Assembly: GCF_964355755.1 (NCBI RefSeq)
Contig: NC_092677.1
Span: 5,726,101-5,790,100, forward strand
Source: Antedon mediterranea
Taxonomy: Eukaryota; Animalia; Echinodermata
Direction of reading: 5' to 3'
Length of the DNA: 64,000 bases
Shown: one piece after another, positions 1,264-63,500 of the stretch
Position numbering within the stretch: the stretch's first letter is position 1
Layout of the letters: every line of letters starts with the position of its first letter
Notes under the pieces: model-generated
The model's database searches: none
Seen by the model: only the letters and a program-made list of their open reading frames with translations
What the model was told of the DNA's origin: nothing
Made by a program: the position numbers and the translations under genes

Positions 1264-2063
1264 AATATACATTTAGAATAGACGGATTTGAGCTTTTAAT
1301 ATCTCCATTCGTTGTTCGTATCTCGCACTGAAATGTTCGTTTAGAATCATTTCTCCTTGGCCGTGACATCACCAAGACAGCTTTCCCAGGTTTTATGTTT
1401 AATTTAAAACGTCCATTTTCTATCTTCTTATCATTCACAAGGTTTATTGTATATCCATTTTCATATAGTTCATCCCATTGTACTGCATTAGGTGTAGTAG
1501 AAGTAAATTGTGAATAATCACAAGTTATCACCACTTCAGCATCACCTTCTTTAGCTGTCTGATCAGACGTTGTCACCAACTGAGAATAAGCTTTAATAAA
1601 TACCGAATTAAAAAATGAAAAAAAAAATCAGTAGTTAAATCAGTGTATGTATTTAGTTATGATTGAAAACAAAATAACGATTGTCGCTGCATATTTTATA
1701 ACTCTATTACATCACACATTTTCACACACAAATATTGTGACACTGTTTATTATAAAACATTATTAAACAATTGACAACAACATTAGAAAACGACTTTACC
1801 CTTTTTGGTAATATCCAGCAATATTACAAGGAAACACATGCCTACAAAAAACTGAAAACAAATATATTTGTTAGTGATGCCATGAAGTGCCGCTAACCGC
1901 ATAGGCCTACTGGTTTAGTTAGTTTACTATGTAGTCAAAATTGGCATCTCAGAGGACGTTTGACTAATAAGGCTCGTTGCCTTGCCTAGGTAGTTCTAAA
2001 GTACATTAACAAAGATAATTTCCTTACTTTTTTATATCTGGTCCTTCTGTTTAATCCAAACAT
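1264..2063 (-). CDS. Ig-superfamily receptor A, 5' exons (leader + V-type Ig); gene continues off the left edge
   Basis: Exons 2063-2028 (MFGLNRRTRYKK), 1851-1800 (FFVGMCFLVILLDITKK) and 1590-1264 (AYSQLVTTSDQ..VITCDY..VQW..FQCEI..LNVY). All GT-AG with phases 0 and 1 compatible. Leader exon 2 is homologous to 63452-63500 of gene C. Confidence 0.85.
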
Positions 2064-3648
2064 TTTTAGCCGCCAAGAAACCAAAGATCTTTAGATTTAT
2101 GTGGTCCTACCAAACCGAAGTATGAATTTAGTATCGGCTACCAAAGAACTAGATATGACCGTAGCGTACTGCCCTCTTTATAACAAACTTTGTCATAAAC
2201 TGTATTAATAACTAAATTGACAAGCAATAATAATAGTTATCTGATAATAGTAGCTACGTGATGATGTCATGATCTAATAAAAATCAAAACGTGGAATCAT
2301 GGCTTCCCTCTCGTTATTGGGTTCAGAATGTTTTAAGTCCATGTCCATGTTAGGTCTACAAGTTAATGAATAAAATTAGAAAAAACGGCTGAGTGGAACA
2401 ACGTTTTTCATTATAATTTTTAGATAAAATGTTATACATGTTCAATATGTCTTTATATCTATACAGCAATCGTGTTTTAACTTTGCACAATCAATTCTGC
2501 TATCATGTCTCGTTGAATACGCTGATGACCATTCATATTTTGTTTTATTAAATGTCCTTTATTATGTTAATTTGATTCTTACGTATTTCTGTTGCTATTC
2601 GCTATTGTTCGTACTGTATACAATGTATTTATTAGCATGGGGCAAACCCTCGATTAGCAAAATCTATTTTTGTTTTCTCCAATTTGCCGTTGGTGAATAC
2701 AGAATAATAATATAATATCATGATATACTTGGCCGAGTGTTCACTCAATAAATGAGGTTGGTTGCCATTGTTGTGTCCTGGGCGTAAAATATTGAAGGCG
2801 TTGACCAAAAATGTATTTAACATAAGTTAATGTTGCTAGGAGAATTTTAAACATTGAAAAAGCAGGGAAAGGTGAAATTGCGCTCTTCCTTGGAAAAAGT
2901 AACATTCTTATCAAAATTCATCTATAAGGTCTGAGGCTTATTAGCAAGACGAACATAATCGAAACTCAACGTGCACAAACTCAATTTCTTTTTACGAGAT
3001 CGAAACAAACAAAATAAACAAAACATAAAGACTATGGCTGTAAATTGCAGTGTTACCGTCATAATATCAGTAGGTATATAATTCATAAATCGACATGCAG
3101 TATATTTTACATAATAATAGCGGTAAGTAGCTTAGTTTATTCATAATTATTTAAAATTTAAGGCCCTATACATTTGAGTGAAGATGATGGTTATAACAAC
3201 CACGTTAAGTTAGGACAAACAAATTATAACATTTGACATTTGATTTGATTGAGCAAAGATCTTATAAATCATTATGCCCTATACGGAAACAGTTTGATTG
3301 AGAGTCTTGGAGAGAAGCAATTAAACAGCATTGAAGGATGCCTTTGGTAATCTTTTATTTCTATATTTTATTGTTGTTATTTTCTATTTTTAATGTTTTG
3401 TAATGAAAATGGCAAAGTAAATAAAACAAAAATGGTGAAGATCGACGCCGACGATATAAAAAAAACTGTAGTTTTTATTCGTTTATTAATTTTTTTTTGT
3501 ATATTCATCATGCTGGACTTTATGGGGATTCATAGTTTCATAACAATGGTATGTAACAAACTACTGATTGTAAAATTAATAGAACAAATTTTCGTTAGAT
3601 CATAATTAATAGTCCTATTATTGAAATTCCATATTTTCACCCTCAGAT
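2064..3648. promoter_or_regulatory. Putative shared bidirectional promoter region between divergent receptors A and B
   Basis: About 1.6 kb between predicted start codons on opposite strands. Positional inference only; no specific sites claimed. Confidence 0.4.
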
Positions 3649-6600
3649 ATGGCGTTATTGTTGACATTACTTACACTTTCTTTAATCGGTAATTACTTAT
3701 GTATTACTCTCTGTAATCTAGTGAGCTATATTAATCGTAATGTAGATATTTTTCAAACATTTGTAACCGTTTAATAAACAAGAAAACCAAGATGTTGGTG
3801 GTGAAAATGCACTTGGAAACTAAACAGTGATTTTACCATAATAATAAATAAGAATGTTTCAATCATCCTTATTCTAATATGTTACAATGTTTGGTAATGT
3901 TTTTTTTCAATATCTTCTTCAACTTGCTTGTTTTGTGACGTAGCTACAAAATAAAAAAGTCTATAAATCATTAAAATTTTATTAAGAATTACTATTTACT
4001 TCACTACTTTTTATCCTGCAACGTTTGGTTTTCTTTATCCATCAAAAGCACATTGTCAATCTGTGACAACATCTGACCAGGAAGCAAAAGAGGGTGATGC
4101 TGAAGTGGTGATGACTTGTGATTATTCACAATTTACTGCTGTTGCACCACCTTCAATACAATGGGATGAACTGTATGAAGATAGATCTACAACAAACCTT
4201 GTGAATGATAAGAAGATACAAAATGGACGTTTTAAATTAAACATAAAACCTGGGAAAGCTGACTTGGTGATGTCACAGCCAATGAGAGATGATTCTCATC
4301 GAAAATTTCAGTGTGAGATACGAACAACGGATGGGGATATTAGAAGCTCAAATCCATCTATTCTAACTGTATATTGTAAGTAACTGACTAAATTAGAATG
4401 CCGTTTTTATTCACTAGAAATGGTATCTGCATTGCGCGGCAATACCTAGCACAGTAAATAATGTCAATGTAGAAATAAAATAAAATGCAAGTTTTGATAA
4501 TTATTAAATTATTCTGGCAAAAATTTGTTTTTACGTCGCTGTGTTAGAAATGCTATTGATCAATTGTCATAAATTAAACGAAAGCTTAAAAACTTATTGA
4601 TCGATTGAGAGACATATTTTGCATACAACATGTTTGTGAGTTGCGTATAAAGCTAAATAAATCACATTGCAGTGTGGATATAAACTTTGCATTTGTTTTT
4701 TCTCAGACTTGGATCGTCCATTTCTTAATAACTCAACTAGTGTTGTCTTTGAAAATCAACCAATAACATTTACCTGTAGTAAACCTGATGGTGTTCCTAT
4801 TCCTCGCATTACTTGGTATAAAGATGGACAGACAGTCAACAGCAACAACCCTTCTAGATATGAGATTACAAATAACATTGCAGAGTCAGTTCTTAAGATT
4901 AAATCAGCTACTGAAGAAGATGCTGGAAAATATACATGTAAAGCAGAAAGTGATCAGTTTAAAGGAGATGATGCTAAAACAAGTGTTGAAAAACATTTAA
5001 ATATATATTGTATGTAAAAGTATTTTAGTTTAAATAAAAAAAATTACTTAAAAAATAAAACAACAATAATGGATGGAACATTGTTTTTTTATGCTCTTAA
5101 TTGTACATATAATTGTTTACTTATGCTTTTCTAGATATCATTGTAACATTTAAACCTGAAGATGGCTTTGCAACATGTACAGCAGAGGGCTATCCCAAAT
5201 TATCATCAGTATTGATATTACAAGATGGAGAGGTGGTTAAGAAAGGACAAAATTCAGTAGCTTTAAGGACTAATGACAGAATATGCAAGTCAAGTCTCAC
5301 GTGTTATGCAGAGAATGAAAAGATTAACAATACAGCGATTCTAGAGACCTGTAACGCAGGTAATTTTCTCAATCAAATGGTTATGTTTGTCCAATGAAAT
5401 TTTATAGCCACATACTATGAAGTCCTAATGCCAACCCAGACAGCGTCGTACGACGAGGCCCGATGAAACGTCTTGACTCGTCGGTGCTGTCTGAGTTGAA
5501 TCTCGACGAGACAAGACGTTTTGTCAAGCGTAGTTTCTAGGTTGTTGGGAGAACATTAAACATGTTTAATTTTCTCCCAAAGCGACGGCTCGTCGAACAA
5601 CGCTGAATTAACTGCAGGTTTATTATCAAACGAATCATTTAGCAAACATTAAAAAAATGTAATGTATTGATAGTATATTTCAACATTGACTTTTTTAGGT
5701 GGTTGTTCGTATGCAATAGGTATTGTGATCATAACTACAGCAATAACTGCAATTACTTTTTGCTCTCTCCCGATGTTTATAATAACACGTTATGTTTATG
5801 TAAGTGGCCTTTATCAGTATGATTTGACTTTCGTTGAAACTTAATAAGTTTGTAATAAATCAATGTACATACGTTTACTTATAATTAACTCTTACCGATA
5901 TTCTTTTAAGGTAAAACGAATACAAGATCTCATTTCCAAATTTCAAATTCTTAAACAATATGAGGCATTGCAATTTTCTTCAAATTCTGATTACAAAGAG
6001 CTCAACAAAGGTGCTATGGTGGAGGCTGGTGTTACCAAGACGTCAAATAACGCAAGATCTAGAATAAGAATACAAGTAAGCGATTTGTAGAAACTTAACG
6101 TTCCAATGAGTATATTCAGTTTCGGCAACTAAACATGGCACGGATTTATAATAAAGTGCGACCAAAAGTAATGAAAAAAGTGCCCAGTTATGCTAATTAT
6201 TTTGTCTTAAAAAATCTGCAATCTGATTAAAATTGCAGCATGGAGTAATTTAACCTCAATGGTAGCAACATGATTTGGTAATTTAAAAACTAAATAAACA
6301 AGATTATTTACAAACACCTTCCTGTTCCTTTACACCATCTATTGTTAAACAGAGAGAAGTAAGAGAAATCGAACGTCAACACCATCAGTACCAAGGACTG
6401 CAAGTTTCAGCAAGCTCTGATGTCGACATAGATGATGAGGGATATGTCAAGCCTACGTTAAATAAAGTAGTATGCATTGCAAAAGTAGAGGTAACATAAA
6501 TAAAAATTTCGCTTACGTCACTATTAAACTGTGTATCACTAGGCCATCCAAGACATGCAGAAACACCTATTTTAACTTATATCTTATTTTTATTTATCCT

Positions 6601-7104
6601 CTATATAGGAAAAGGAAGAAATAGAATTCGAATGCAAAAATCCTCAGTATCAAGGACTAGTAGCTTCATTTGATGACAGAGGCGACGGCAGACGTGATAC
6701 TAGGGTCTCAAATAATGAAGGAGTACTTGTGTCAAAACTTAAGGTAACTAACAACGTACCATGTTTAACCGCATGGTGCATGCTTTTTAAACTACACTTC
6801 TACAACCAACCAGATATGAAACAGCGGATTGCTTATTCGATAATGTGATTTTTACTATTCAATACGGCTATGCGGCTCCATTTTCGTGACATGCCCCACA
6901 CCGTGATTCAATTTAACTAAAATACTTAATCATGATCATAATTCAATATTGATATTGTTTCTACAGGAAAAAGGAGAAATTGAAATTGAATGTCAAAATC
7001 CAGGGTACCAAGGTCTTCAAGTTTTGGCAAGTCCTATTCCTATGATTTTCATCAAGGAAAAGTGTGCTGAACGACATTATTGTAAAAAGTTTTATCCTGA
7101 ATAG
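3649..7104 (+). CDS. Type I membrane Ig-superfamily receptor B (SP-3Ig-TM-ITAM tail), about 523 aa, apparently intact
   Basis: Exons 3649-3688 (MALLLTLLTLSLI), 4049-4375 (V-type Ig), 4707-5009 (I-type Ig: TFTC..ITWYKDG..DAGKYTC), 5135-5359 (short Ig), 5699-5799 (TM: AIGIVIITTAITAITFCSLPMFII), 5911-6075 (YEALQFSSNSDYKEL), 6353-6490, 6609-6743 and 6967-7104 (TAG). All GT-AG; summed length 1572 nt with no internal stop. Confidence 0.88.
5420..5600. repeat. GC-rich palindromic insert (MITE fragment) in an intron of B
   Basis: Inverted repeats caacccagacagc...gctgtctgagttg and ttaaacatgtttaa in an otherwise AT-rich intron. Confidence 0.4.
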
Positions 7105-14124: not shown

Positions 14125-17100
14125 TCATGATATATTAATGGATCTCTTTTCTTTAGGAAGATTTTTTTTCTTCTTAATTTCTTTGTTAGAAATCAACTGC
14201 ATTCCAATGGTATAACCCTCTGTTTCTGAACCATAACTGTAAACACACACTATTCCTTCTGCTTCTTCTTTCCCTTCTTTTACACTGTAGTAAGCTAGGT
14301 CAGATTCTTCAGCATTCACTGGACCTAGTGTACATAACTGAGACCAGGATTTACAACCATTTTCACTTAAGTAAATTGAAAGATAGTTATTTGTTTTCTT
14401 TCCATGATTTGCCATTATTGTTGGATGACACCAACCTCCCTTTTTTGGTAAGGATACAATACCACCCTAGATAATAACAAAAAAAGTAATGTAACTATTA
14501 GCTCATATTAAAGGCAAATCAAAATGAAATTAACATACTTTGTTCTATTTTAGTTAACAATTTATCTGAAATTGATTGTTGTGGGCTAAGCTATGCAAAC
14601 ATTGTTTACTAAAGAATAATGACATTTTGAAATCCAGGATCAAATTAGAATTAGTGAATTTGTACTGGCTTATAGGGAATGGGTTTGCTGGGAAATATAT
14701 CTCGGTATATTTATTCAAAAATTCACATTTAAAAGTACATACATGGCCGGACATGGCTGTATGTATTACACATTAATAAAACAATTTTAACTATAGAAAA
14801 CACTATCAACTATATATAAATAATACAAGCAAAAAATAAATTAATTAAAGTTTGTTCAAAAGTTCAACCATAAAAGAAACTGGACTAGTCTGGAAACGTT
14901 TAGTTTTATAACTATAATTTTCCACTCCACAAATGAGGAATTTGCTTGGAGATGAGGGTGCTTGCTGACACCCGAGCTATACACACCCTGCCGATAGGAA
15001 TGCATAGTAGTACAGGTTAAAAATTGAAGGAATGCCATATTGCATAGTACCTGGCATTCAGGAATTGCTTCCTTATCCTTATCATTGACCAAAAACGAGT
15101 CCAATCCTGTATCTCCGGTTACATGTAAACGATGTTGGAAGTCCTCAGATAAACATCTGATGTAAACTTCATTCTTTGCTAATTCAACAACCTAATAAAT
15201 ACAGATTTTAATAATATGACAAAGTGACATTTAGAGTAGTCAAGTAAATGTGCGTTTAACGTGTGTTATATTGATATAACCAACGGCCTCGTAATCTTAC
15301 TTGTAAATGTCCAAATGTAGCATCTAATGTTATAACAGCAGTTTTTATTTTCCAGTTTTCGCCATCATCAGTACTTATCATTACTAATAGTCTTTCTGGA
15401 AAAAAACAACCCGAAATACAAATACCTTTATTTATCATACTTTGTTGACTGCTAATTATTATGTTAATTTAACGTGATACCGATATAAGTGTATCTCTGG
15501 GTGACAATGATGTCTTTTGTTGTGCAAATGAAGTTGTTACAATGATTAAAAGTGGCAGTACAATACAATACAATAATTGTTCTAAAAACCAACAATAAGA
15601 AATTAAAAAAAGGAACATATTGTAGTTGGTAATGTTCTTGTATGAATGTCTCCTCAATACATTATTATGCATACTCTCATTATTCACAGTCTTGCAAACT
15701 GCTGCAACAATCAATTTCCCAGAATGTAAGCGTACACCATTACTAAGGTCTGAAAAACAAAATATATTTTGCTATTAAATATAATATCTGAATTGTCATA
15801 TCATAGTTTGTTGTACAACCACAGTAGAAACATTTCATCGCAAGTTTTATATTTTTAAATGTATACCAGATACCACATGGTATTATAAACTTTCCTTCTC
15901 AATATGTTCTAAAAAGAAAACAAGGCCATATACATGGCTGCAGTCGCGTGCTCAAGTTAGTGTTTACCGACCAACCAACAAACCGACCAACCAACCGATC
16001 AACCAACCAACCGACCGACCTACCGACCAACCGACATAGTGAGCTGTAGAGAGACGTTGCACGCGACTAAAAAGTGTAGATTTAAATTATATTCATGTAT
16101 CATATTAATGGGTTTATAATCAAACAACCAATACGATCCAATTGAAATTATACTTACTTATACTATCCACTTGAAAGTCTGTTAAATCAAGTTGTATGTC
16201 AAATGGTCCTTTCCAATTCTCTCCATTATCATCAGATTTCATCCTTATCATCTTCCTTTCTTTTGTGTTGTTGTTTTGTTCAACACACATTAGAATCACC
16301 TTCCCGTTTTTTGTCACAATTGGTACTATATTCTGAAAGCTGTGTAGTAAATTGTATAAATACTATTATTAAAATCAGTCAAGGTCCAAACACACAATTT
16401 AAAAAAGTTCGGTAGGAAGTTTGGGATGAATGATTGGAATGAGAAATGGATGAGAAATTCTAATTACTGTAATGTAAAGTTACTTAATAATTTGTTTTTT
16501 CGTACACATTTTACTGGCATGCAACCCATGCAGATTAAACTTAAGTCCTGGTAGATAATTCAAACAAACACTCGAGTTCATTCTCCTCTTTCTTTCATAG
16601 GTGGGTATATACACAAGAGGCACTCTACCTCAGTTTCATCTCAATTATTTCCTCTTGCAATTTCTACCTTCTATTTTTGTGCTAGCTAAAATCTTTTGCA
16701 TGTACAAAAATAACTAACAAACACGGTTTTTGCCTCACTGCTTTTATCTGGGAAGCAACTAATACAATATAAAAGTTGCGTTTGACATTTTTTTTTACAT
16801 TCAGATATAAAGTAACCGCATTTCAGAACACGATAAATGTCGTTAGTTCTGTCCGTCATATACCAACTTAAAATGTATTCACATGTAGGCCTAAGTTAAG
16901 TCGGGCCTGGTTAGACTAACTATATATACACATTCCTTGAATTTAATTACCACTGACTATTATCCAGCTACTTTGCCAACATAGCATTTTTTTAATCAAT
17001 GTATTCATATCGCAATTACACACCTTGTATCCGTATATAGAATCAATTTTGGTTTTTGCCATTCAATGACACTGTTCCCATTCAATCTTCCTCTTCTCAT

Positions 17101-17719: not shown

Positions 17720-17973
17720 CTAAAAAACGCCGAAAATATTAAATTGGGACAAAAAATTCACTTAATATTTTATGTGTAATGGTATCTACTGTCAGACAGA
17801 AAATGAATTACTGTGAATATTTTTAGATGATATAAACAATATTTGTCAACATACCACATAGTAAAGTTCAAGCTATCTTATTGGTTAAGTTCATTAGATA
17901 CAGGAATGCTTCGCAGATCATTCAATATTTTAAAATATTGTAGAAAAACAGATAGTATTAAAAATTGACTTAC

Positions 17974-39829: not shown

Positions 39830-39870
<41 letters not shown>

Positions 39871-39871: not shown

Positions 39872-40085
39872 TGTGGACGTATCGTGCAAACAAACAAAAG
39901 TTGAACGTAAACATTAAGTATACCTTAGATGCATTTTACCTAGTATTAATAACAACACAAAGTGTTACTAGAGAGGACACTATTACAAATTGAAAAAAAA
40001 ACGCAAAAACGATACTATATTTTATAATATAATTTAAGTATAAAAAAAAAAAAAAAAAAAAAAAAAATAATTTAAGTATTATAAA

Positions 40086-40410: not shown

Positions 40411-40610
40411 TTAAAAGAAATACTTACATCGAAAACGTAAGTGCCCTGATGGCTTATGTTTCATATCTAAAAGTAATGAATATATCCTTTTAAATTACAG
40501 ATTAATTAATAGAAAAGAATAACTTTTAAAACAATAATGCATTTTTTCTTTTCATTTTAACATTCTTTTAAATGTAAAATTGCAAAATTTCACTAGCCTA
40601 GTATACTTAC

Positions 40611-48471: not shown

Positions 48472-49448
48472 CTTTCTTTACAAGCCTTCCCGTGGATACT
48501 TCCATATATGGTGTTTGTTGTCCATTATGTATAATCTTTCCTGAAGTACAAGCTTGTAAATCAAGATCTGCATATTGAATCTCTTTATTCTATAAATCAT
48601 CAAAACTAATCAATACATTAATACATATTCTTAAAAAACAGTTAATACAATTATTGAACCAGAAATAAAGCAATTAGATAAATAACTATGATTTAACGTA
48701 TCAGTTTCTAAAGAGTTTGTAATTCATTTTTTTATATATGTATTTTCTACAGCATATTTAGCAAGATTGCCTAAACATTAGAAATACCTTGTATTTATCT
48801 TCTTCAAGTTTAACCTTTGATGTTCCTATTGTACCATAAAAACAATCAATTAAGAATAACAAACATTATGGATAGGAAATTGCAATTGAGATTTAAATCA
48901 AAGATGTTGGGTTGTGTGACAGAGTTTGTTATTAACTAATGCAAAATTCATTTAAAATAGCTTTGGATATGTTCTTCTGATAAATTGAAAGTAACCCAAT
49001 AATTATCAACCTTGCAAAGAAAGAAAGAGTATTTTTAAATAATGATATAGGCCTAGATTATACCTTTCTTGATCAGCCTTCCCTTGGATAATTCCATATA
49101 TGGTGTTTTTCTGTCATTGCTTATTATCTTTCCTGAGGAACTGGCTTGTAAATGAAGATCTGCATATTGAATCACTTTCTAATAATAATCATAATCTAAT
49201 CAATACATGTTACCAACATATTTTAAAAGAAAATTAGCATTCATTCAATTCTAATAAAAAAATCCATACTTAGGGCCAACATAGGGAAGGACCTCTGAAT
49301 AAAAAAAAAGTCACAATTGGTAGTACCCTGTTTGTTAAACTTGCTCAAAAATATTATTTTAGGTTAATCGATTTTTATTAACATTTGTTTTCCTTAAAAT
49401 TTAAAAATACCTTTCTTTTATCTTCTTTATGTTTAATTTTTGACGTTT
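48472..49448 (-). CDS. Duplicated ITIM/ITSM exon cassette of receptor C
   Basis: Exons 49448-49411 (ETSKIKHKEDKRK), 49178-49064 (IQYADL..TPYMEL), 48825-48788 (GTSKVKLEEDKYK) and 48589-48472 (IQYADL..TPYMEV). Phases alternate 1-0 and 0-1. Confidence 0.78.
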
Positions 49449-50536
49449 CTATAGTACAATAAACAAGCTAATACATTAAACGATTACAAATTATTATTAT
49501 ATATATTATTAATATGGTAAACTTTAGAAATACTTTTGAGATGTTTGAGAATATGACATGTTATTAAATAATGCAAAATGCATTTTAACGCAGATTTATA
49601 TTCTCTATGTTTACATTCATTTTAAAAGAAACAAAATATGTTGCTTTTCAATTATGCACTTTAAAACAAAAAAGAGGGTTTCTTGTAAAATGAAACAATA
49701 AAATAAAACTTAAATAAAACATAAATAAAATATAATTTAGATTTATCTGTACTACAAACGTATATAAAGTACACAAATATATAAAACATAGATAATTAAT
49801 TATAAATGTGTTATCTAAAACACATGTCAAATTAAACTAAAAAATATTAACTAAAAATATGTACTAAACAAAATTAATAAATCTACTAAAACGTACTATC
49901 GTTAACAAATAGAGCATGCATTTCTGAGAAATAAATGACAATTAATTCTTGGTTGAGTTCAACATTGTTTCAGGCATGCATTCTGAAATGTACTGTTATT
50001 CAGAATGATAGAAATAAAAAGGTTAGAAGAACTAATAACATAAAATTAATTTATTTGCAACACAAGCTTTACTTTAAAAATACGATGTAAAATCGTTTTT
50101 AGGAAAGGTATAGCATAAATGCTAAATTAAAACAGGTTTATTGCTGGTGTTCTTCCTATTTTATATAATTTGGCGTTTGGTAAAAGGAACTCAATTGAAT
50201 TAAAAAAAAAATCCATATTTGAACTTTTATAATATCAAATAATCTTACACTACATTGTAGACACAGGACTTTTTAAATGCAATCTGAGTAAAATTCCATC
50301 AACTAATTTTACTAGGTTTCGTAGCCTGGTTCTATCGGTTTATACTAGGTCAAGTTTTTTTTCCACAACAAACTCGTATTACAAAAACATTTTAACAACG
50401 ATGAGGTGTAAATTAATAATAAATAAATAACTAAATAATGAATAATCACAATTGAACATACTCTCCATAAGTACGTGGGGGGCGTAACGCATACTATTAT
50501 TGTTAGTGAATGAAAGCTGTTATGAAAATTGTATAA

Positions 50537-53500
50537 TTAAATGATATCACCAATGAATTTTCTTCCTCTTTTATTAACTTTTGCGTAAATAACAGGATCT
50601 TCCGTAACACATGACATAGGTGTACTACATTTTACACTTGCATAGACTATTTCCCGCTGTGAAAATATTGTTATCATTTAACTAAATATGTTATATAATT
50701 AGCCCACGGCGCTTTATTCAAGAAAAAGATTAATTACAAAATTTGATTGATTTATAATTTGATTTATTCGATTTTATATATTCAATTCTGGTGATATCTA
50801 ATTGATTCAAAGATTTTAATTGTTATTTAATAATTGTTAAAAAAAATTGTAGTAGAAAAGTACTAGTTACAAAACAACAACAACAAATGTAATTTTATTT
50901 TTATAGCAATTCAAATAAAGATAAATTCTTACTGTGTGACTGATGCTGAAGTGTCCTCCTTAATTTAACCAAGAATAAGATAATTACTTCTAATAATAAA
51001 ATACGGTTTCGATCCAAGTCGGCCCTAAACCGTCTCGGCCAAAGTCAAGTCGGCCCCAAGTCAACTCGGCCCCAAGTCAACTCGGCCTCAAGTCAACTCG
51101 GCCTCAAGTCAACTCGGCCTCACGTCAACTCGGCCAAAAAATAATCGGTCAACTCGGCCCCGTTAAAGTATGGAACGCAAAAAGTGCAAATGAAGGGGAT
51201 TGATAAAATAATATTTCTTCACAATTTTTTAACTATGAATAATTCTGACTTTTAATGAATATTATTATTTAGACAATAATATATTTAGCAAAAAAAATAG
51301 GAAGGATTTCACCAACTTTCCTTTATTTACGTTTAATCAAATTTCGTAGCTGAGCCTCCCTGCGCGTTTGCCAGCTTTTTCGATATCTACAACTGCTACG
51401 TGTTTTCGCTGACCAGGGGATTCCTCTTTTTTAAAAACGCAAATCATGCACAAAAACGATGTACGATCATTTTTTCTATGGGGTGGAACGTACTAGGCCT
51501 CCGTCTTCGATTTCCTAAAATACGGTACCTGCACGTGTTTTTTGTAACACGCGGGTACTTCTATTCATCGGCAATGAGTTCATTTTTTTATATGATATTA
51601 TATTTTTTATTCATTTTTTTTAAAACGTGGATAGTAAGAATCGTAATAATATTAAGCACTTTTTGCGTTCCATACTTTATTGTGGCCGAGTTGACCGATT
51701 AGTTTTTGGCCGAGTTGACGTGAGGCCGAGTTGACTTGAGGCCGAGTTGACTTGAGGCCGAGTTGACTTGGGGCCGACTTGACGTGGGGCCGACTTGACT
51801 TTGGCCGAGACGGTTTGGGGCCGACTTGACCTGCACCCTAAAATACATCTAATAATAGCATTATTTGCTCAATAGAAAAAGGTTCAAGGGAACCTAAGAA
51901 TAAAACTGCACTTGCTTGTTTCATGTAATTAACATTAATACAAACACTAAATTAAATTTTGTGATAATATATTGTTTTTTTTTTTGTTTCATATATTATT
52001 TCCCAATACATAAACTGTTTATTGATTAATTGATCGATTGATTGATTGGTGATATGAGGTTTAAATGCAATAATTAATAAATTATTAAAAGAATGGAAAC
52101 TTTACCTTTGTCTTTAGATGTTTTTTGTTCTGATAAAAGTTGCCTCTCTTCAACATAAGCAGAGCTTGTCTTTGAAAAAAAGCAAAGAATATTAAAGAAT
52201 GATTCAAATAATGTATACTCTACATAAAAAAAAAACCTATTATATAATAAAATACCTATGGAAGGTTCATTATTAGATGCAGTTGATTGATTAGCATTTA
52301 CCTTTCAATCTTTTAGTATAACTGTATTGTGAAAATATAATGTTGGGTTTCCTTACCAACACATTTAATATGGTCGAACTTAAAGGTGTATACAACCATT
52401 TAGAACTGTTTAGTTTTACATTTTAAAAGTTGTAGTGTAATCTGTTCATTGAAAGTGTATCTGATTTTAGTGAAGAATAATTCATGTCTCAAAACATAAA
52501 TTGAAATAATGTTCTAAATCAATGAAATCTATGAAAAACCCAGCTGAAAGAAAATTGATTGGGGTCTTGTTTAAAATATTGAGGTTTTCTTCTTTTGTCT
52601 TTGTAATTTAAACCAGAAAAACTAATAGAAGAAACAAGAACTTGTTCATAACAAACCTGAACTTCTTGTGCAGTAGCTGCTGCTTCAGTTGCTTCAGCCT
52701 GGTTAGTAGGTGAACTTGATTTAGTTACAACAGGGCCCTCTGCACCATCAGGAACATCTCTTTCATTCGCCATCATTAATTGATACTCTTCTCCAGTTGT
52801 ATTACCATTTCTGTTAAGACAATAAAAACTATTACACTATTCAAAGTATTGCTAAGATACTACCATTTGTAACACCACTACCTTAATAGCAATTTTTAAC
52901 CATGCATGTTTAACAATATTTATCATGTATTACAAAATGAAAACGTTTGTATTAAACTCACCTGGAGCTTTCATGTTTCTTTTTATCTATATCATTGTAA
53001 ACAACTGTTTAAATAAAACAAGAAACAAAATGTAATGAAGACAAATTGGTATTAAATTTAACATTTGAGGCATTGACTGACATACAATGATGTATTCTTC
53101 ATGCAAAATTCACACTATGAAGTAAAATAGTTCAATCTGTATCTATAAAATACATAAAAGAAACGAAAAAAAAACAATGTATATATAAAGGACCCTTGGA
53201 AACAAGCTTTTGGGCTTTTATGTGTATGCTTTTGGTTTTATTTGTGTAAATGACCAACAAATGTTTCTTTACCACATTTGAATTATTGCATTTTATTGAC
53301 TATTTAATAAAAATAAATATCATCAAATACAGAGTGCAGAATAATGATAGTTCTTAGACAATCAATATAACTTACCCGATTTGTATTCAATACAAAAGAA
53401 TCCACAAAAGTAAAGACAGCAATAACAGACAAACTGACAGACTGATTTCCAACTACTGAATTGCTGTTGATTTGAACCAAGCACTTTGTCTTCTTTCTTT

Positions 53501-56500
53501 ATTTCAAATGTCTTGAACCTTGCAATACTTGGACGGTATTTAAAACTCATCACAACTGGTTTACCACCTTCAACTGTCACTGTATTAATACCTTTATTGC
53601 TCCACTCAATATTCTTGTAATACATGAAATCTAAAAATTAAATAAACAAAACTAAACTGGTAAAACTAGTATTTTTTTATTTTATTAATTTAGTCCCCGA
53701 AATATTTATTTACATGAAATATTCAATAAAACCTACAGAAAAAGGAAATTCAGAAAAATAGAAATGTTTGAAACATAACTCAGAACATAATAGTATAACA
53801 TTGAAGCGTTATTATGAATATGGCATGTAAAATATAAAGGCACTATTAGCTTAATAAAATAATTATCTTTACGCCATGGTTTCCTCGATATTTCCGTAAT
53901 TCAATAAGAATTTTACTTACAAACAAGAAGCAGTAACCATAAGAACAAACCAACAATCAAAACAATCAGGATGATGTGCAATGAACCCGAACCTGTTTAA
54001 AAAAATACTATTTCCAATATTACAGTGTAAAAACAAATGGATACAGAATTACAAATATAATTTTACAGATATTTAAACCAGAGAAAAGTAAAATTACTGT
54101 AATTATTTCACTTTCTCTGATTTTAAACTAATATTATAATATTATTGTTTAAAAACGCTGGCTAAAATCGTTTCATCTTTTTTTTAAATAACACAAAGCA
54201 AATGTAATAATATAAATTAATGCTGCTATTATGCATTCTTATTAAACGCAAGCAAGTGTAAGAAGATTGGGCTGAAATCAAATTAATTTACATATTTCAA
54301 CATTTATTGGCCCCTTTTGAAAATAAAGCAAGGCAGAAAACCCCTATTAATAATAATAATAAATGTCGTTACAGTTTTAAAAATTAATGGCGTTTGACGG
54401 ACTATAAAGCATCATTTTCTAATTATGCAGTTACAATTTGTTATAAACACAAATCATAAAATACATGATGGTATTGCAGGTTCAGTAACATCAAAGTTCA
54501 TTATTGAGCAACGTCATGCTACAGCTACTCTGTACGACTGAGAGCTGTCTGTGTTACGATGGTTTAGACGGTAATCTTGTTTACATAAATTCTGTTTTGT
54601 TCGATAAAGGAATTAGTACATGGTATGCACTGCAATGTAGTACAAGACGAGGTTTGTCCAAATATGTTTTCAGTTAAACTGAAGTTAATTAAATACCGCG
54701 TTAAAGATGTATTGTCCCCCAAAAGAATGAAAAATGAAGATTAATTAAATCAGACTTTGAATAGGTTTTTTTGCAGTTTCAATAAAGTTCATCACTTCCG
54801 TAGAAAAAAAATGAAAATAAATTATGTTTTCCGTTATAAAATGACAAAATAAATGGTAAAATTTAGCCAAAAATTCATTGGCTGGCAGCCAATTTGACTA
54901 TTTTTTTGCAGGTAAGAAATTTTTTTTAAAATCTAATTTTTGGTCAAAGTGGATAACTATTATGTGAAATTATAATGGTATATTCAACAAAAACATTTTA
55001 CATAATTATTTTTTTCAGGGGACAATACATTTTAAATAAAAAAACACCTCCTTAAAATAAACGCCTCTATTTAACATACATAGGCCTAAACATTTAAACT
55101 GCATAATGCAATTGGTATAATTACCTGGGACACAGTTACCTAGTGTTGTTGTACCATTTAGCTTTTCATTCTCTGCATAACATGTAAGACTTGTTTGACA
55201 TGTCTCATCATTAATTACTATAGTTGCTGTATTTTCTCCTTTCTTAACCACTTCTCCATCTTGTAATATCAATACTGATGATAGCTTGGGATAGCCCTCT
55301 GCTGTACATGTTGCAATACCATCTTCAGATGTAAAAGTAACAACAATAACTGAAGCGACAAAATCAGTTAATTTAGCAAAATGTATATAGATTGTGTAGG
55401 TAAATGTCTGTAATAGTATTACATTTTTTCTTAAATGAATTATAGATAACATACATTACATCATGTTATAATACATTTACAAAATCAGCAGAAGTGCATA
55501 TGATGGTCCTCTCTTTACTATGAATATACATTTTAACAACTAGGATATGGAAAACTTGACTTGCAAGAAATTTAGCTCACACTGGGAGTTGACCAGTTAG
55601 GTATGTACATTTTAATTTAAAAATTACAAAACCTGGTGATAATGTTGCAAAAAACTTCACGATTTGTCAATAAAAAATGCATGTACAAGCTATTAATTGT
55701 CATGTACTGTTAATTGTTAAGTAAAGTAATGTTTACCTACAATATACTATCAACTGTATTTCAACACTTGTTTTAGCATCCTCTCCTTTAAACTGATCAC
55801 TTTCTGCTTTACATGTATATATCCCACCATCTTCTTCAGTAGCAGATTTAATCTTAAGAACTGACTCTGTACTGTTATTGGTAATCTTATATCTAGAAGA
55901 ATTGTTGGTGTTGACTGTCTGTCCATCTTCATACCAAGTAATGTGAGGAATAGGATCACCATCAGGTTTACTACAAGTAAAGGTCACTGGTTGACCTTCG
56001 TAAACTGTTCTATGTGAGGCAGAAAGAAGTGGATGATCCAAATCTGAAAAACATAGTTTTTGAATTTAGTATCTGTTGTGTAATGTAGGGATTTCTGAAA
56101 AAAATCATTTATTTGTATTATAATCTACTTATAGAGGAACAGTAATAATATTATATGATTGAATAAAGTGTGAATATAATACATTAAATTGTCTTGTCAA
56201 TGTTTATTAATTTTAAATAAATAAATACCATAATTGATTTAACGAGAGCATTTTACCTATTTACTAATTATTTTTTTATGTACATTACGTGACTACTGTA
56301 ATTCTGAATAAATTGAAATTCAAAATAAATTAATAAACCACTTATACCAATTAAACAAACTGTATTTAAAATTAAATATAACTAGAGGGTGAGCGTGCTT
56401 CGCTCGCTTCCCGTCTAGGAAGTGTAGACGATGGTTCTCGGAATGATAATGACTCTGGTAAAAAGTTTTAGAAGGACATTCTGGCTTGGACGATTTCGAT

Positions 56501-59500
56501 CGGTTACCATTATTTAAATGCGTTTGATATTGGTAAAACTAAACCTACTCACTCACAGTGTCTTAGATGATTAATAGCGTTTTACGTATAGTGTTTATTG
56601 TAGATATGAAAAGTGGTAAAAAAGAATAACAAATGCTTGGTAAATTGTAGATAACAGTCCGATGAAATCTACTAAAAAATAGTATAATTGTGTAATAAAT
56701 ATAATACAATATTGTGTGTATAAATGTGGATGGGCGTTAATTAGATGGCATTTGGATATGGGTGGGGGGGGGGGGGAGTGGCGATAATTATTTTAATTGA
56801 TGTTTTAATGGGGAAGTGTTCCGGGCGTTTATTCAAATCAATACCATCCTAATCGGTATAATTAATACATTATTCCGCGACACAGTGAGCCGTTTTGGCC
56901 TAAGAAGGAAGACATTTTAGACGGCTTGCAATATGGGCAGAAGTATCTATGGTTCTGACGGGACACAGATAGCGCATAGTATACATGAGTCCTGGCAGCT
57001 TACTTGTTTTAAAACTCCCTGGTTGAAACCAACTATAGTTGAGGGCGCATCATGAGTTAGCAACCGTATAAACAGTGCTCCGTCTTCATTAAAAATAAAG
57101 TAAAGTTTTGCCAAAAATAGCCATAAGACAACTGTGCTACATAAGTGAGTATTACAATTTGGTTAATGCTGTCATCGTCTTTTGATCTAAAACTAAGAAA
57201 ATGGTCAGAAAAAAGGACCAAACTGAACGTACCCCTCCGGACACCTCAACGACCCAGGCGACACCCACCGAAGAAACCAGCTAAATCCAGTTATTAAGGC
57301 GGGAGATTAAAACGCTAACAACTGAAATGCAAACAAAACTGGACTCCATACTTAAAAATCAAACCTCAATTATGAATAGAATTGACTCAATGGAGGCAAA
57401 ACAATTAGATATGGAGAAATCCATTACTTTTACCTCCGATTCAATCAACGATCTTGAAAAGAAAGTAACAACGTATGATAGCGAAATGAAAGATATTTCA
57501 ACAACACTTGAAACAGAAAAGAAAAAAATTACCAGTATACAAAATGATATTCTGAATCTTGAACGGTATTCAAGGAGTTTTAACCTGAGATTTGGTGGGA
57601 TAACTGAGGAACCAAACGAAGATGCAACAAAAAAGATTAAGGAATTACTAAATAAAACACTCAACCTAAACGACATCGTCATTGAAACGGCTCATCGCAC
57701 AGGAAAACCATCAACAATAAGTGGTAAGCCAAGACATATCATTGTTAAATTTATATATCGACCACAGAGATTTGAAGTACTCAGAAGAGCTAAGTCGATA
57801 TTGAAAAATTCCGAGATGTTTGTACTAGAAGATAAGCCAGTAGCAGATATTATCAAAAGGCGAGGCCTGCGAGAAGTTATGAAGAAAGCGTATGAAGAAG
57901 GTAAAAAGACTGTCTTTAGAAATGGCAACCTTTACATTAACGGTAAAATGTATACATAACTTCTTTATTTTCGTTCGTTTGTTTTTAATTGAATTCAATT
58001 TGTGACTATATCCTGCCTAACTATAACAGCATTAAACCATATGCAGAAAATGGGTACCACTTATTGTATCCACTAGGAGAATTCAAACTGTACGGAATTG
58101 AAACATCAACACGATCGCGATTATGTGTTTACATAACCTAAACATTAGCAGGTGAAAGAATTGGCACACTGACTTAAATACCATGTTACGTAATCTGTTG
58201 CTGTGTTGTGTGTCACATACTTTGCCTATTGGTTTTGTAGACCGACAAACATAAATACATCTAAATATACAAACTATAGAAACGTACTTACCAATATTAT
58301 TAGAAAACGAAAAAAGGATTACTATTTTAATAAATTTGAAAAAAATAAAAATAATATGAAAGAAACGTGGAATGCCATTAATCAACTTTTAGGTAGGAAG
58401 ACAAAATCCCAACTGCCATCAAACCTAAAATATGGGACAGAGACATACACTAACCCAGAAACAAAATCCGATGCATTCAATTCTTACTTTATTAATATTG
58501 GGAAACAATTAGCTGACAAAATTAACCATGATAACAACCCTGCCATTGATCCAACGTCATATTTGACTGGTAACTACCTTAATTCTATGTATTTCAGACC
58601 CACAACAGAATACGAAATAATGACATACATTAATAAATTAGAAACAGATAAAACACCAGGTCACGATGATATCAGTGCTCACTATATCAAGTACAATCCC
58701 GTCTACCTTACAAAACCTAATTCACACTTAATAAACGTTTCACTCGCCACTGGCCGATTCCCTGATGAACTAAAATGTGCCAAAACTATACCTGTTTTTA
58801 AAAGTGGCGATAGGCAAAACCTTAATAATTATCGACCCATATCAATCTTACCATATATAATAATATATATATTTTTTTTATTATTCAACTGTCATTTATG
58901 ATTATTGATTATTGTCTCTATTGTTTACATATATATTTACTAATTGTTATTGTTTTTATTGTAATTTATTTATTTATTAATTTTTTCCAATTTTTAATTG
59001 TTACATAGGACATCACATTTTAAAGCTTTGCTTATAATGTCATGCCCGATTCAATCAATCAATATATAACTTTTGCTTAAAACCATGTTCAACTGTAGGC
59101 CGTTGCCAATATACTGTAATCTCCCTAAACACTGCTACTTTTAATACTTACAATATTATATGTTTTCATCTTTTCCATTGATTGTAAACCTCTAATTAAA
59201 CTTTCCAGTATTTTATTATTCAACTTCTGTTTCCAATAATATTCAATATAAACAATTAATTTTTATTTTTATCATTACTGTAAATAATCATTGTATATAT
59301 TTTATAATTAATATTTATATTGGTCTTGTTTTTTTGTAAAAATGTACTGTAATATTATACCTTATTATGGTTACCATTTTAACAAATGTACGATTGATTG
59401 AATAAAGTTCACATATATAAAAACCATGCAGGGAACTTGCAAGGTGATTGACACACCTTACCGTGAACCCGGAAATTACTTACCGCGCGTAGAGTTAAAA

Positions 59501-62500
59501 TTTACCAATTGAAATTAGAAAATTTCTTATAAAACCCTTTATAATATCTTCCTAAGATAGAAATATGGAACAATATCGTAATAGTGGAAACTAATGTTAT
59601 AAAATCTACGTTTCGCGGTACATCTGAGATAGATAGGGTAGGTATCCAAGGCGGAGTTTAGTACCGAAGTTTTCCACCGCCTACGTCAGAATTAACCATA
59701 ATTTATATATAGAAGCTTAAATATTAAATATACTGTATAAAGATAGAAGATGCTGCTACTGTGAAATACATTAAATGGTAACAAATAGGGTGATCCCTCC
59801 GCTTGAACACTGAACTCACTTAGTATAAATTGAACTGAACGTTTTGCAACATGTGTATACCCAGTACTACCAAGGAACTAAATCTGAAAATCCCAAAATA
59901 GATTTTCTTTGATCGTTTCTGCCTTGTATAATGTACTTTTTAAAATTATACTTTAAAATCGAATTTTGTTTTAGTAATATTCTGAATGTAATGTTAGTAT
60001 TTGAATAAAATGTCAACAGGAATTTTATATTGTTTTATACTGTACGCCTTATTCTTTTAATCACTAGAAATGGCCTATATATATTAGTGAAGCCTATAAG
60101 GCTTATAAATTACCAGGTATAGGACATTCTGATCGTAATTGTATTAATCTTATTCCGAAATATAAACAGAAACTTAAACAGCAGAAACCTATTGTTATAG
60201 AAAGATTAGTGTGGTCTGAGGATAAGGTTAATGAGTTAAAAGGGTGTTATGAAGCCACTGATTGGAATATGTTTATGGACTCTTCGGAAACTTTAAATGA
60301 GGCTACAGTAGCAATTGTTGAATACATAAAATTCTGTCAAAATCTGATCTTACCCAAAAAGAAAATTAGAATATCTAATAATAATAAGCCTTGGCTCACA
60401 AAAGATGTAAGAAAGGAATTACTTAAGAAATATATTGCATCCAAAAACAAATGCAACGAGATGGAAAAGAAAAAGATTCAAAAATGTGTAAATAAGAAAA
60501 TCAAATCATGTAAAAAAGAATAGGCCTATGGAGAAAAAAATGAGAACAAATTCAAGTGCCGGGACACCCGTCAGGCCTGGAATGGAGTTAGGAAAATTAC
60601 AGGTATGGGGAAGAAAAATAATGAAATGGAACACAGTTTTAAACCAAATGATTTTAATATTTTTTATTCTAGATTTGATGAAATAAATTTTAAATGTGAA
60701 ATGACTGCATCTGCTGAAGGGTTTAAAAATGAAATGAATGATAAAAGTGCAATAAAAATTGATGTAGATGATGTTAAGAAATATATGGAAAGGGTAAATG
60801 TTAGTAAAGCAAAGGGTCCGGACGGTGTATCAGAGCGTTTGATTAGATCATGTGCCTCTCAGCTTTCACCAATAATAAGCCAGCTTTTCCAGTGTTCACT
60901 GAAAACGGGGGTGTTACCTGATCTATGGAAGGTCTCTGAGATTATACCTGTTCCGAAAATGTGTAACCCTAAAATCATTAACGACTTCAGACCAGTGGCA
61001 TTAACATCTATTCTAATGAAGATCCTTGAGAAAATTGTTAGAAGTCAACTAATGTCTGAATGTAGTGATTTTATGGATAATAACCAATTTGCATATCAAT
61101 GTAATAGAGGGGTCGATAATGCTATTATAACCTTGTTAGACCTGGTGGTTTCACATTTAGATAAGAAGGGGACCTATGCTCGAGGGCTATTCATAGACTT
61201 TTCATCTGCATTCAATTTGATGCAGCCTCATATTTTAATGAATAAAATGTCTGAAAGCAGTACCTTCATCTAGTTCAGTGTCGTGTCGTCATTAATCATT
61301 CGTAAAAATATAGGTAAAAACCCCGATAATAATAATAACTGAGGAAGCATTGTGTCGACGGATCGTTAATCAGTACTCGAAAAAAGAGAAGGTGGTAGAA
61401 TGGGTGCGTATACACACAAGGAATAGCCCACAATAAAGTGCCCTAACCTGTTCAACTGTACTTCCTGTTTGTGTCGGCGGGGTCGCGAGCACGTGATGCT
61501 TAAGATATCTCGCCATAACATGAGCCGTCGAACGCAATTTAATGAATTTAATCGAATTACCGCTCTCGTAAAATTTAACTAGATCAGTACTTATCTCGCC
61601 CTAAGTTCGATATGAACCCAACTTATGGGTTGGTGATTTTCTTACAAATCGGCTACAGTATGTTAACGTTGGTAAATCTATCTCAGAGATTAGAAGGATC
61701 AACAGTGGTGCACCCCAGGGGTGTTTTCTGTCACCAAGTTTATTTACAATATAATACTAGTGAATGTCGATCTTCATGTAGCATGTGTCATATAATCAAA
61801 TACGCAGATGACATGGTACTGATTGGTCTATTGAAAAATGCTGACGATCATGTGTATAAGGCTGAATATGTTAAATTAATGTCATGGTGCAATGGCAATT
61901 ACCTTAAGATTAATTTTAATAAAACTAAAGAAATTATATGGGATTTTAGGAAAAAGAAAAATGAAAAAAGTTATCTGATAGTTAATGATCAGACAATTGA
62001 ACGTGTTCATGAAACCAAATATCTTGGTACACATATTGATGATCAACTTAGTTTTGAAAAAAATACGGCCAAGATAATTAAGAAAGGTCACCAAAGGTTA
62101 TATTTCCTAAGAAAGCTAAATACATTTAATGTTAGCTGTGGTACTTTAAAATTATTCTATGAAACAGTTATTCAATCAGTACTAGTTATCTCTTTTATTG
62201 CTTGGTTCGGTAATTTAAATGAAACACACAAGAAAAGTCTCATTAGAATTACTAAGATAGCATCAAATATAATTGGTTGTACGGTTAATGATTTAAAATA
62301 TCTTTATGAAAAACAGGTCTTAAGTAAATTAAGTAAAATTTTAGAAGATAAGAAACATCCATTACATATGAGATTTTTTAAGAACAAGTCTGGCCGGTTA
62401 CGGGCTCCTAGAGCTGATACGTCAAGAAACCGACTGTCTTTTGTACCAAATTCAACTCATATTTTTAACTCAAAGATTGTTAGATCATAATAGCGCACAT

Positions 62501-63500
62501 GCAATATATATTTTAAAGTTTTACTGTTGATGGATGTTTTAATTAATGTTTTTAAATTGTAAATTTGTTCTATGTATGATGTAATTATGAATGTTTTACC
62601 ATATTTTTCTGTCGAGGAAAACAATTTTTCCATGTAAAATTTATTTTATATGGAACGAATAAAGATTTGATTTGATTTGATTTGATTATACATTTATACG
62701 TTTTATATTAGAATGTGACGCAATTCATATATTTTTGCGATGCCACTTCTTTTTAATAAAACATAATTGAATTGAATAGAACTCAGAGTATGTTCTATTG
62801 TAGTATAATAGTACTTATACTTCCAATATTTTATTTATTTTTATTTTGCTTTAATCCAGTGGCTATGAATTAAAGTTTGGCTCAAACATTCAGATTGCTA
62901 CTCACAATATACAGTTAGAATAGATGGATTTGATCTTTCAATAGCTCCATTTGTTGTTATCAGACACTGAAATCTTCGTAGAGAATCATTTCTCATTGGC
63001 TGTGACATCACCAAGTCAGCTTTCCCAGGTTTTATGTTTAATTTAAAACGTACATTTGCTACAAGTTTTGTTGTAGATCCATCTTCATTTACTTCATCCC
63101 ATTGTATTACATCAGGTGTAGTAGAAGTAAATTGTGAATAATCACAAGTTATCACCACATCAGCATCACCTTCCTTGGTTGTCTGGTCAGATGTTGTCAG
63201 CAACTGACAGTCTGCATCTAAACAAATTAAGTAGATAATCAGTATATATCAGTATATAGCTTGTATGAATACTACAAGTAACTCTAACAACTAAGCTATA
63301 GATATTGCTAAGAAAATATAAACAAAAATGCACCTGAAATGGCAATGCATTGATGGTGAAACATGGTATAAAAACATTCTCTAAAAACATATGTTTTAAA
63401 TAATGATTTTAGAAACACATTTATATATTTTATGTATGAAAAGAAACTTACCCTTTTTAATAACCAGTAATATTACAATAAAATACACAGCTACAAATAA
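50537..63500 (-). CDS. Type I membrane Ig-superfamily receptor C (leader-3Ig-TM-ITIM tail), short isoform; start exon not located
   Basis: Exons 63500-63452, 63217-62906 (V), 56043-55741, 55349-55125, 53992-53921 (TM: IILIVLIVGLFLWLLLLV), 53630-53376, 53004-52962 (VVYNDI), 52810-52657, 52169-52106, 50958-50933 and 50656-50537 (IVYASV, VIYAKV, TAA). Every junction is GT-AG and phase-consistent. Confidence 0.85.
51005..51838. mobile_element. Foldback-type MITE with long TIRs built of 16-bp tandem repeats
   Basis: (aagtcaactcggccyc)n at the left end is mirrored at the right. GG..CC termini. 8-bp TSD taaaatac at 50997-51004 and 51839-51846. Confidence 0.88.
54705..55031. mobile_element. MITE with TTAA flanks (Kolobok-like termini)
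   Basis: ttaa-agatgtattgtcccc ... ggggacaatacattt-taa inverted termini. Confidence 0.65.
56382..59713 (-). mobile_element. Second Helitron-like element (H2) hosting a LINE
   Basis: The reverse strand begins tctatatataaatt (59713) and ends cgagaaccatc..gcgagcgaagc..ctctag|t (56382), the same terminal grammar as H1. Confidence 0.6.
57070..59415 (+). mobile_element. Internally deleted CR1-like LINE (coiled-coil/RRM ORF1 + partial ORF2 + 3' UTR)
   Basis: ORF1 57327-57959 (LERYSRSFNLRFGGI, IETAHR, RHIIVKF). ORF2 remnant (ETWNAIN, FNSYFINIG, PGHDDI, FPDELK, NYRPIS). Confidence 0.85.
60117..62686 (+). mobile_element. 5'-truncated Rex1/Babar-like LINE
   Basis: GHSD..LIPKYKQKL, NNKPW, GPDG, DFRPVAL, IDFSSAFN, YADD, KYLG, QRLYFLRKL. 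(GATTT)n tail. Related to 8396-11555. Confidence 0.9.
61255..61600. mobile_element. Small insertion interrupting the LINE RT
   Basis: Non-RT, GC-richer sequence with imperfect inverted ends (agtac..atctagtt / aactagat.agtac). Confidence 0.45.

Follow-up and report, generated by a model that had tools for sequence, protein, structure and literature searches.

Paired receptors are the products of linked genes with similar ectodomains, one signaling through immunoreceptor tyrosine-based inhibition motifs (ITIMs) and the other through activation motifs (ITAMs). The partners show signs of sequence exchange and the activating one is often lost, as outlined in the sections of PMC13358205 drawn on here. 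Such receptors have been described mainly in vertebrates, and the invertebrate ITAM/ITIM families come from a cnidarian and a tunicate. The Alr proteins of Hydractinia are clustered immunoglobulin (Ig) receptors, among which some carry ITAMs and two carry ITIMs; in the cited part of that work, domains 2 and 3 are described as having no paired cysteines and most of the proteins add an Fn3-like fold (10.1101/2022.03.04.482883). The fester and FcoR genes of Botryllus are summarized as head-to-head pairs that are gained and lost as units and carry ITIM or hemITAM tails (10.1101/2024.10.16.618699). The window analyzed here is a 64,000-nucleotide stretch of the feather star Antedon mediterranea (NC_092677.1, positions 5,726,101 to 5,790,100). 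It contains a cluster of Ig receptor genes, of which the ITAM gene B and the ITIM gene C are intact, gene A is partial and E/B' is a headless remnant. By sequence criteria, B and C qualify as a paired receptor that belongs to no named vertebrate family and is not an Alr. They probably represent a lineage-specific system whose inhibitory receptor has an undescribed architecture.

B and C resemble vertebrate paired receptors in their linked genes, similar ectodomains, and the presence of ITIMs on one protein and ITAM signaling on the other. They differ in having no orthology to them, and the two ectodomains are 73% identical over 279 aa rather than near-identical. The transmembrane (TM) segment of B has no charged residue for a DAP12-type adaptor, unlike vertebrate paired receptors; its ITAM lies in the receptor's own tail, an arrangement that resembles CEACAM3. 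We know of no vertebrate inhibitory receptor with a 1050-aa post-TM region that holds Ig domains and a sialidase fold. Siglecs are defined by a V-set domain in which an F-strand Arg is invariant and the cysteine pattern is non-canonical. This pattern was not found in Ig1 of B or C, where the Cys pair is canonical and the F-strand varies (FQCEIRT in B, FQCLITT in C and FKCEVQE in the A. mediterranea relative XP_071958844). The cluster shares with Hydractinia Alr an invertebrate array of Ig receptors with ITAM and ITIM motifs. Unlike the Alr proteins as they are portrayed in the part of the report cited above, B and C keep both cysteines in Ig2 and Ig3 and then pass directly into the TM. No Alr protein was among the 8 proteins scored, of 72 candidates, in a search with B Ig1. 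In the cited account of Botryllus, a receptor is combined with a co-receptor and the motifs are on FcoR, whereas B and C are both three-Ig receptors with opposite motifs.

Matched ectodomains and opposite tails in B and C

Gene B (3649..7104, + strand) encodes a predicted 523-aa receptor in 9 exons with GT-AG junctions throughout and one stop. The leader (3649-3688) is followed by Ig1 (4049-4375), Ig2 (4707-5009), Ig3 (5135-5359), the TM exon (5699-5799) and four exons (5911-6075, 6353-6490, 6609-6743 and 6967-7104) that specify a 190-aa tail. Gene C (31863..63500, - strand) was modeled by mapping A. mediterranea proteins onto the window and then resolving micro-exons. The model has 29 exons in one 1374-aa frame with one stop; the start codon was not located and is likely in an upstream exon. 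All 28 donors are GT, and the junctions are GT-AG and in phase. The leader of C (63500-63452) and its ectodomain Ig exons (63217-62906, 56043-55741 and 55349-55125) precede a TM exon at 53992-53921.

A reading made from the sequence alone had proposed that B and C combine matching three-Ig ectodomains with unrelated tails, and the comparison bears this out. Identity between the ectodomain exons is 86, 86 and 79% at the DNA level, Ig2 (303 nt) and Ig3 (225 nt) have the same length in both genes, and the run ATCTAEGYPKL is found at 5170 (+) and 55314 (-). The TM and tail exons have no meaningful match (best E 0.024). The tyrosine motifs named in the sequence-only reading are all present in the genes to which it assigned them. 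Similarity between the ectodomains is patchy. A 75-nt stretch of Ig3 has 3 mismatches, a clustering reached in 0 of 5000 permutations, and Ig1 contains 61 consecutive identical nt (p 0.0016); both patches are closer than an even distribution of differences would produce. They are suggestive of gene conversion, and purifying selection may also account for them.

The B ITAM (5959..6003, + strand) has the form YEAL-x7-YKEL, with YEAL at 5959 and YKEL at 5992. An ITAM arises in 1.45% of 20,000 shuffles of the B tail. The later tail exons add three YQGL repeats and a DDEGY motif, and the tail as a whole has 5 YxxL/I motifs compared to 1.04 expected (p 0.0014). The corresponding count in the A. mediterranea model XP_071958823 is 6 compared to 1.22. 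XP_071958823 is 71% identical to B in the ectodomain and 62% over the TM plus tail, and the conservation anticipated for the ITAM is found there as YQAL-x8-YKEL with more repeats. A search with the B ITAM exon scored 0 of 6 candidates, a blank that means little since XP_071958823 exists as a cluster member. B is the best-supported part of the finding.

The product of C is longer than had been thought. The sequence-only reading described a three-Ig ITIM receptor that ends after TPYMEV and made no mention of a second hydrophobic, Cys-rich segment after the TM. The frame in fact runs through 14 more exons to a BNR/sialidase-like propeller. The predicted order is leader, three Ig domains, TM, basic loop, Cys-rich hydrophobic segment, low-complexity linker and ITIM block, and these are followed by half an Ig domain, three Ig domains and the propeller. 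The exon at 53630-53376 (-), which appears specific to crinoids, encodes a basic loop like the first half of an Ig domain and then the Cys-rich hydrophobic segment VCQFVCYCCLYFCGFFCI. The post-TM Ig region (40428..47628, -) contains two micro-exons, the second half of an Ig domain (45899-45765), three complete Ig exons (45564-45253, 44919-44605 and 40922-40611) and a 39-nt remnant. This in-frame remnant (40428-40466, -) looks like an Ig exon whose middle has been deleted, leaving its two ends (YMK...GHLRF). A candidate separate Ig/sialidase gene between the receptors, D, proved to be the 3' part of C. Four A. mediterranea models share the build of C with 57-63% identity over 923-1197 aligned residues. 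These and the other RefSeq relatives are computed models rather than validated transcripts, and their named isoforms suggest transcript support.

The ITIM block of C (48472..50958, -) consists of six exons totaling 441 nt. It is in frame and so can be skipped without a frameshift. The motifs are IVYASV (50650), VIYAKV (50593) and two pairs of an ITIM with an immunoreceptor tyrosine-based switch motif (ITSM), IQYADL/TPYMEL and IQYADL/TPYMEV, with IQYADL at 49172 and 48580 and TPYMEV at 48514. The linker has 7 ITIM/ITSM-like motifs compared to 0.66 expected and none of 20,000 shuffles had as many, a count in which the two pairs represent one tandem duplication and for which the linker limits were set after the motifs were seen. 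A homologous block is present in A. mediterranea isoforms X1 and X2 (XP_071958880/881) with the motifs VTYADL, IKYVDL and TSYFEL (3 compared to 0.29 expected), and isoform X3 (XP_071958882) skips it. The ITIM and ITSM tyrosines are 22 aa apart in both C and XP_071958880/881. This spacing is close to that of PD-1 and CD33-type Siglecs. The pair and its spacing are thus conserved as had been predicted at this one locus, where one isoform lacks them, and not across the C-type loci considered below. XP_071947494, from outside the block-bearing locus, keeps a single TEYSNL. VVYNDI, which had been listed among the C motifs, is present at 53005. It was rejected as an ITIM; it straddles an exon junction and is kept neither in E nor in the A. 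mediterranea relatives. VCYCCL and LAYYSV were also set aside, being not conserved or within a membrane segment or folded domain.

The terminal propeller of C (31863..39649, -) is encoded by seven exons. It matches Pfam BNR_2 with E 1.5e-15, sialidase clusters were also matched, and a search of PDB sequences returned 16 bacterial sialidase matches at E up to 0.01. The top Foldseek match of the predicted structure (pLDDT 58, with the C-terminal 135 residues below 50) is human cytosolic NEU2 at E 1.3e-9. At that confidence the model is a six-bladed propeller with Asp-box-like repeats, the fold of GH33 sialidases. C shares with NEU2 and with Clostridium NanI/NanJ the propeller fold, BNR_2, the Asp-box-like repeats and the first motif Arg, and differs from them in being fused to an Ig receptor and in the apparent replacement of the catalytic positions. 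The Arg of the Y/FRIP motif is kept (YRHS in C and YRRP, HRHP, YRHP, TRHP and YRQP in five relatives), and the Ile is replaced. The NanJ alignment pairs the ECQVVE Glu with His and the FMRN Arg with Ser in C. The last blade has K/E-x-L and EESDL where sialidases have Arg and YSD, as judged by motif reading rather than a tool alignment, and the last propeller exon gave no sialidase match in PDB sequences. The site corresponding to EESDL is Tyr334-x-Asp336 of NEU2 in the numbering given in PMC5669518. Roles of the catalytic residues partly follow PMC5482835. The Glu, the second and third Arg and the nucleophile Tyr appear to be replaced; therefore, the propeller is likely a pseudo-enzyme.

Neighboring copies and the genomic setting

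The 5' part of gene A (1264..1839, -) includes a leader exon (1839-1800, MCFLVILLDITKK) and an Ig1 exon (1590-1264); the remainder lies left of the window. A Ig1 is 87.5% identical to B at the DNA level. The A leader matches the C leader at 19 of 21 nt and a C-type model with E 7e-7, and the B leader matches a B-type model. A is likely a C-type gene because its leader is C-type. The sequence-only reading had expected as much, and its prediction holds for the leader; the tail is outside the window. A and B are divergent with start codons 1.8 kb apart, and C and E lie within the same cluster. A short duplicate of the Ig1 exon end is located just downstream of A's Ig1 at 1141-1188 (-).

Gene E (14125..24656, -) is a C-type copy without ectodomain exons. 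Eighteen of its 22 exons are open, including TM, Cys-rich, Ig and propeller exons. All six internal stops fall within about 400 of 3121 nt, corresponding to the ITIM block and one doubtful linker exon, and E therefore appears to have lost the brake with the remainder intact. B' (28864..30503, +) is a pseudogene copy of the TM and tail of B without Ig exons. Its TM is 5'-truncated with a stop, the ITAM exon is split by an insertion (29124-29453), and the later exons contain a frameshift and stops. No Ig ectodomain exons were detected by tblastn between E and B'. E/B' was rejected as a working pair on these grounds and for the stops in the ITIM-type exons of E, and with it the idea that the layout repeats as an array of intact pairs. 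The acceptor phase of the E TM exon equals the donor phase of C Ig3 (55125), and E is downstream on the same strand. This phase match and position mean that E may be an alternative ITIM-less 3' half for the C ectodomain, or it may be a pseudogene. In the gap between E and B', where the ectodomains are missing (25648-26282 and 27808-28704), there are two direct repeats of 72 bp, a 101-aa open reading frame (ORF; 26614-26919) without a Pfam match and degenerate tandem repeats, each about 270-300 bp.

Self-BLAST of the window shows the three Ig exons of B inverted in C and the Ig1 of A inverted beside B. Second copies of the TM and tail of C and B appear as E and B', respectively. Outside the window, A. 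mediterranea B-type and C-type models have neighboring accessions (823/824 and 841/844), which hints at linkage of the two types, accession numbers being without coordinates. All 8 proteins scored in the B Ig1 search are from A. mediterranea with 65-74% identity. A search of 1.84 billion representatives with the exon following the C TM returned 7 proteins, 5 from A. mediterranea, 1 from Anneissia japonica and 1 repeat-driven eel protein. The eel "obscurin-like" match is a sum over repeats and was not accepted as homology. The family looks crinoid-specific because every homologue found is from these two crinoids. RefSeq members with the same architectures and 57-74% identity are XP_071958823, -824, -844, -647, -880/881/882, XP_071957667 and XP_071947493, and their labels are uncharacterized, lachesin-like or JAM-like only. 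Neither the family nor the pairing was described in the literature searched, which was judged on titles and abstract openings and does not establish absence from print.

The window has a G+C content of 31%, and its short exons are set among retroelement fragments. LINE-type fragments lie at 8560-11400, 38870-39590, 42060-44340 and 57285-62490, and RVT_1 or endonuclease matches were found in 5 of 9 ORFs scanned. The first Ig intron of C is 6.9 kb compared to 0.33 kb in B because retroelement insertions stretched it. An element of about 810 bp inside a C intron (51015-51828) has 173-bp terminal inverted repeats that are 96% alike and a very high summed depth; it is likely a miniature inverted-repeat transposable element. 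Summed contig depth was taken from DNA runs with differing likeness thresholds and is not a measure of copy number. The contigs of the four runs extend over introns and so carry no information on splicing. In DNA run X1, unique DNA has a depth of about 45-60, Ig exons reach 1000-4000, the bin holding the C Cys-rich exon has about 870, and the B TM and ITAM exons have about 200.

Signaling model, topology and competing explanations

The chances appear about even that B and C work as an activating and inhibitory pair, with B signaling through its ITAM and a Syk/Shark-type kinase, C acting through ITIM plus ITSM and an SHP phosphatase when the cassette is present, and the Ig array and propeller of C serving as a scaffold. 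In this model, the ligands of B and C would be related to each other and displayed by other cells or by microbes. The ITAM and the YQGL/DDEGY repeats of B, once phosphorylated by a Src-family kinase, would recruit the Syk/Shark-type kinase. The ITIM-ITSM pair of C would recruit a tandem-SH2 SHP phosphatase that dampens the B signal. C would be a single-pass protein whose Cys-rich segment lies at the inner leaflet, where it is probably S-acylated. The ITIM block may be an optional cassette, with splicing or exon loss giving C-type receptors with or without the brake. Rather than being an enzyme, the dead propeller would form a docking scaffold together with the cytosolic Ig array, and the head-to-head unit of B and C would duplicate and decay as a unit, as A/B and E/B' may record. 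A fuller version is tentative and somewhat harder to credit. It pictures a feather-star system of its own, passed on as the head-to-head unit, whose inhibitory partner would be a new type of receptor. Splicing would include or omit the ITIM/ITSM cassette within a loop of a split cytosolic Ig domain, the cytosolic Ig array and catalytically dead propeller would follow, and E is possibly a brake-less 3' half for the C ectodomain. For the paired-receptor interpretation first offered, the motifs conserved in homologues and the C-type leader of A are favorable; that C is a 1374-aa Ig/propeller protein, that most C-type loci lack the ITIM block and that E/B' is headless count against it.

Several results weigh against the pairing model. 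The ITIM block is present in just 1 of 6 C-type A. mediterranea loci examined. With 5 of 6 loci lacking it and the E block broken while other E exons are open, conservation in the family does not center on the brake. B and C do not appear from their sequences to be each other's closest relatives; C Ig2 and Ig3 are 84% and 77% identical to A. mediterranea proteins compared to 75% and 68% to B. The similarity of the two ectodomains is not above the family background, and B and C clades were not separated in Ig-domain trees, which mostly lacked resolution. The depth pattern hints at a large family in which C-type modules are several-fold commoner than B-type TM/ITAM exons. Finally, the B ITAM has no upstream acidic residue, which is part of the stricter consensus.

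A rather doubtful alternative is that the genes form a fast-evolving adhesion or clearance family. C would be a nectin- or IgLON-like scaffold with a marginal ITIM block, and B an engulfment-type ITAM receptor that shares its ectodomain through recent duplication. Necl-4, PTP-delta, NCAM and IgLONs are the closest structures to the ectodomain model, although this is a low-confidence model with generic three-Ig matches. The scarcity of the ITIM block among C-type models and its decay in E also suit this explanation, as does fly phagocytosis, noted as ITAM-driven in the cited part of 10.1101/2022.03.04.482883. A third tail type is found on the same three-Ig ectodomain in XP_071958835, where TIYSNV is accompanied by four Ig domains without cysteines and a C-terminal region that looks helical. 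However, genes of opposite type are repeatedly linked head to head, in A/B, in E/B' and in the neighboring A. mediterranea accessions, and the near-identity of the B and C ectodomains is patchy. Expansion, decay and tail swapping also fit pathogen- or self-driven receptor families as these are characterized in the sections used of PMC13358205.

ITIM function hinges on topology, and the motifs of C can work only as topology allows; those of B, with its single TM, are clearly cytosolic. It is unlikely that C crosses the membrane twice, which would place the linker, the extra Ig domains and the propeller outside the cell. C would then be a two-armed protein for adhesion or lectin binding, its dead sialidase would bind sialic acids, the motifs would be silent and B would have no inhibitory partner. 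The Cys-rich segment that would form the second span is 18-19 residues long, is conserved in all C-type proteins, and reaches a 19-residue mean hydropathy of 1.75-2.0; it could span a membrane, and this counts against the single-pass arrangement. So does the retention of both cysteines in 18 of 32 post-TM Ig domains. The rarity of the ITIM block among C-type models and the retained first Arg of the sialidase motif are also compatible with an extracellular tail. Against two spans, the estimated insertion energy of the Cys-rich segment is unfavorable (+0.7 to +1.8 compared to -6 to -8 for the TM, on a rough scale), and the B-strand Cys is absent in 14 of the 32 post-TM Ig domains. N-glycosylation sequons in C and four full-ectodomain relatives fall from 2.1-3.7 per 100 aa before the TM to 0.6-1.1 after it, which is near chance; the contrast is weaker in B and in the single-TM relative, and two short-ectodomain models are uninformative. 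That relative, XP_071958835, has one TM followed by an Ig domain of the same type as the post-TM Ig domains of C (60% identity). XP_071944339-41 and XP_071958848 combine Ig domains with a propeller and have no signal peptide or TM, although they may be partial models. The ITIM/ITSM motifs and spacing kept in XP_071958880/881 likewise count against two spans.

The split Ig domain bears on the same point. The post-TM and post-linker exons map to complementary parts of the family's Ig profile (positions 18-73 and 81-118), and therefore both halves should sit on one side of the membrane. The N-half match is weak at 2.7-4.9 bits and at least 10 of 499 shuffles scored higher, which places it only within the top few percent and diminishes its value for a single-pass tail. 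AlphaFold prediction of XP_071958882 from 8 sequences gave a mean pLDDT of 46 with residues 333-566 below 50 and is no test of the split Ig domain. The ESM Atlas assigned the split-Ig region to V-set Ig clusters at 0.84-0.86 only, which is a lead. From these sequence features, a single-pass C with a cytosolic tail is favored by a good margin over a two-pass one. Pfam had no match for the Cys-rich exon, its Anneissia homologue or the XP_071958835 C-terminus. The homologue, A. japonica XP_033114273, is a 144-aa model that lacks both the leader and the first TM and has the Cys-rich module near the N-terminus. The model may be partial, or the module may be the trace of an older cytosolic protein, anchored in the membrane, that later became fused to the Ig receptor.

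A product of C that ends soon after the last ITSM, with the downstream Ig and propeller exons belonging to a separate cytosolic gene fused by prediction, is very unlikely. In its favor, reading on past the last ITIM exon adds 14 aa before a stop, an AATAAA lies nearby (common in AT-rich DNA), and the TM-less Ig plus propeller models exist. Against it, phase is kept at all 28 GT-AG junctions, including the supposed break; the TM/Cys exon is joined to downstream Ig exons in six A. mediterranea loci, three of which have named isoforms; E has the same exon order; and a non-exhaustive search for a separate downstream gene turned up neither a leader nor a start exon.

Meaning for receptor evolution in crinoids

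The literature searched contained no Ig receptor whose post-TM region combines further Ig domains with a pseudo-sialidase propeller. Such a protein would be unusual under either topology, as a cytosolic scaffold or as an extracellular sialic-acid lectin. The pair may have an immune or allorecognition role. If the pairing of B and C is correct, opposite and conserved motifs on matched ectodomains in an echinoderm would supply a missing case near the root of the deuterostomes. This case would also support the view that ITAM/ITIM balancing has been attached repeatedly to newly evolved receptors.

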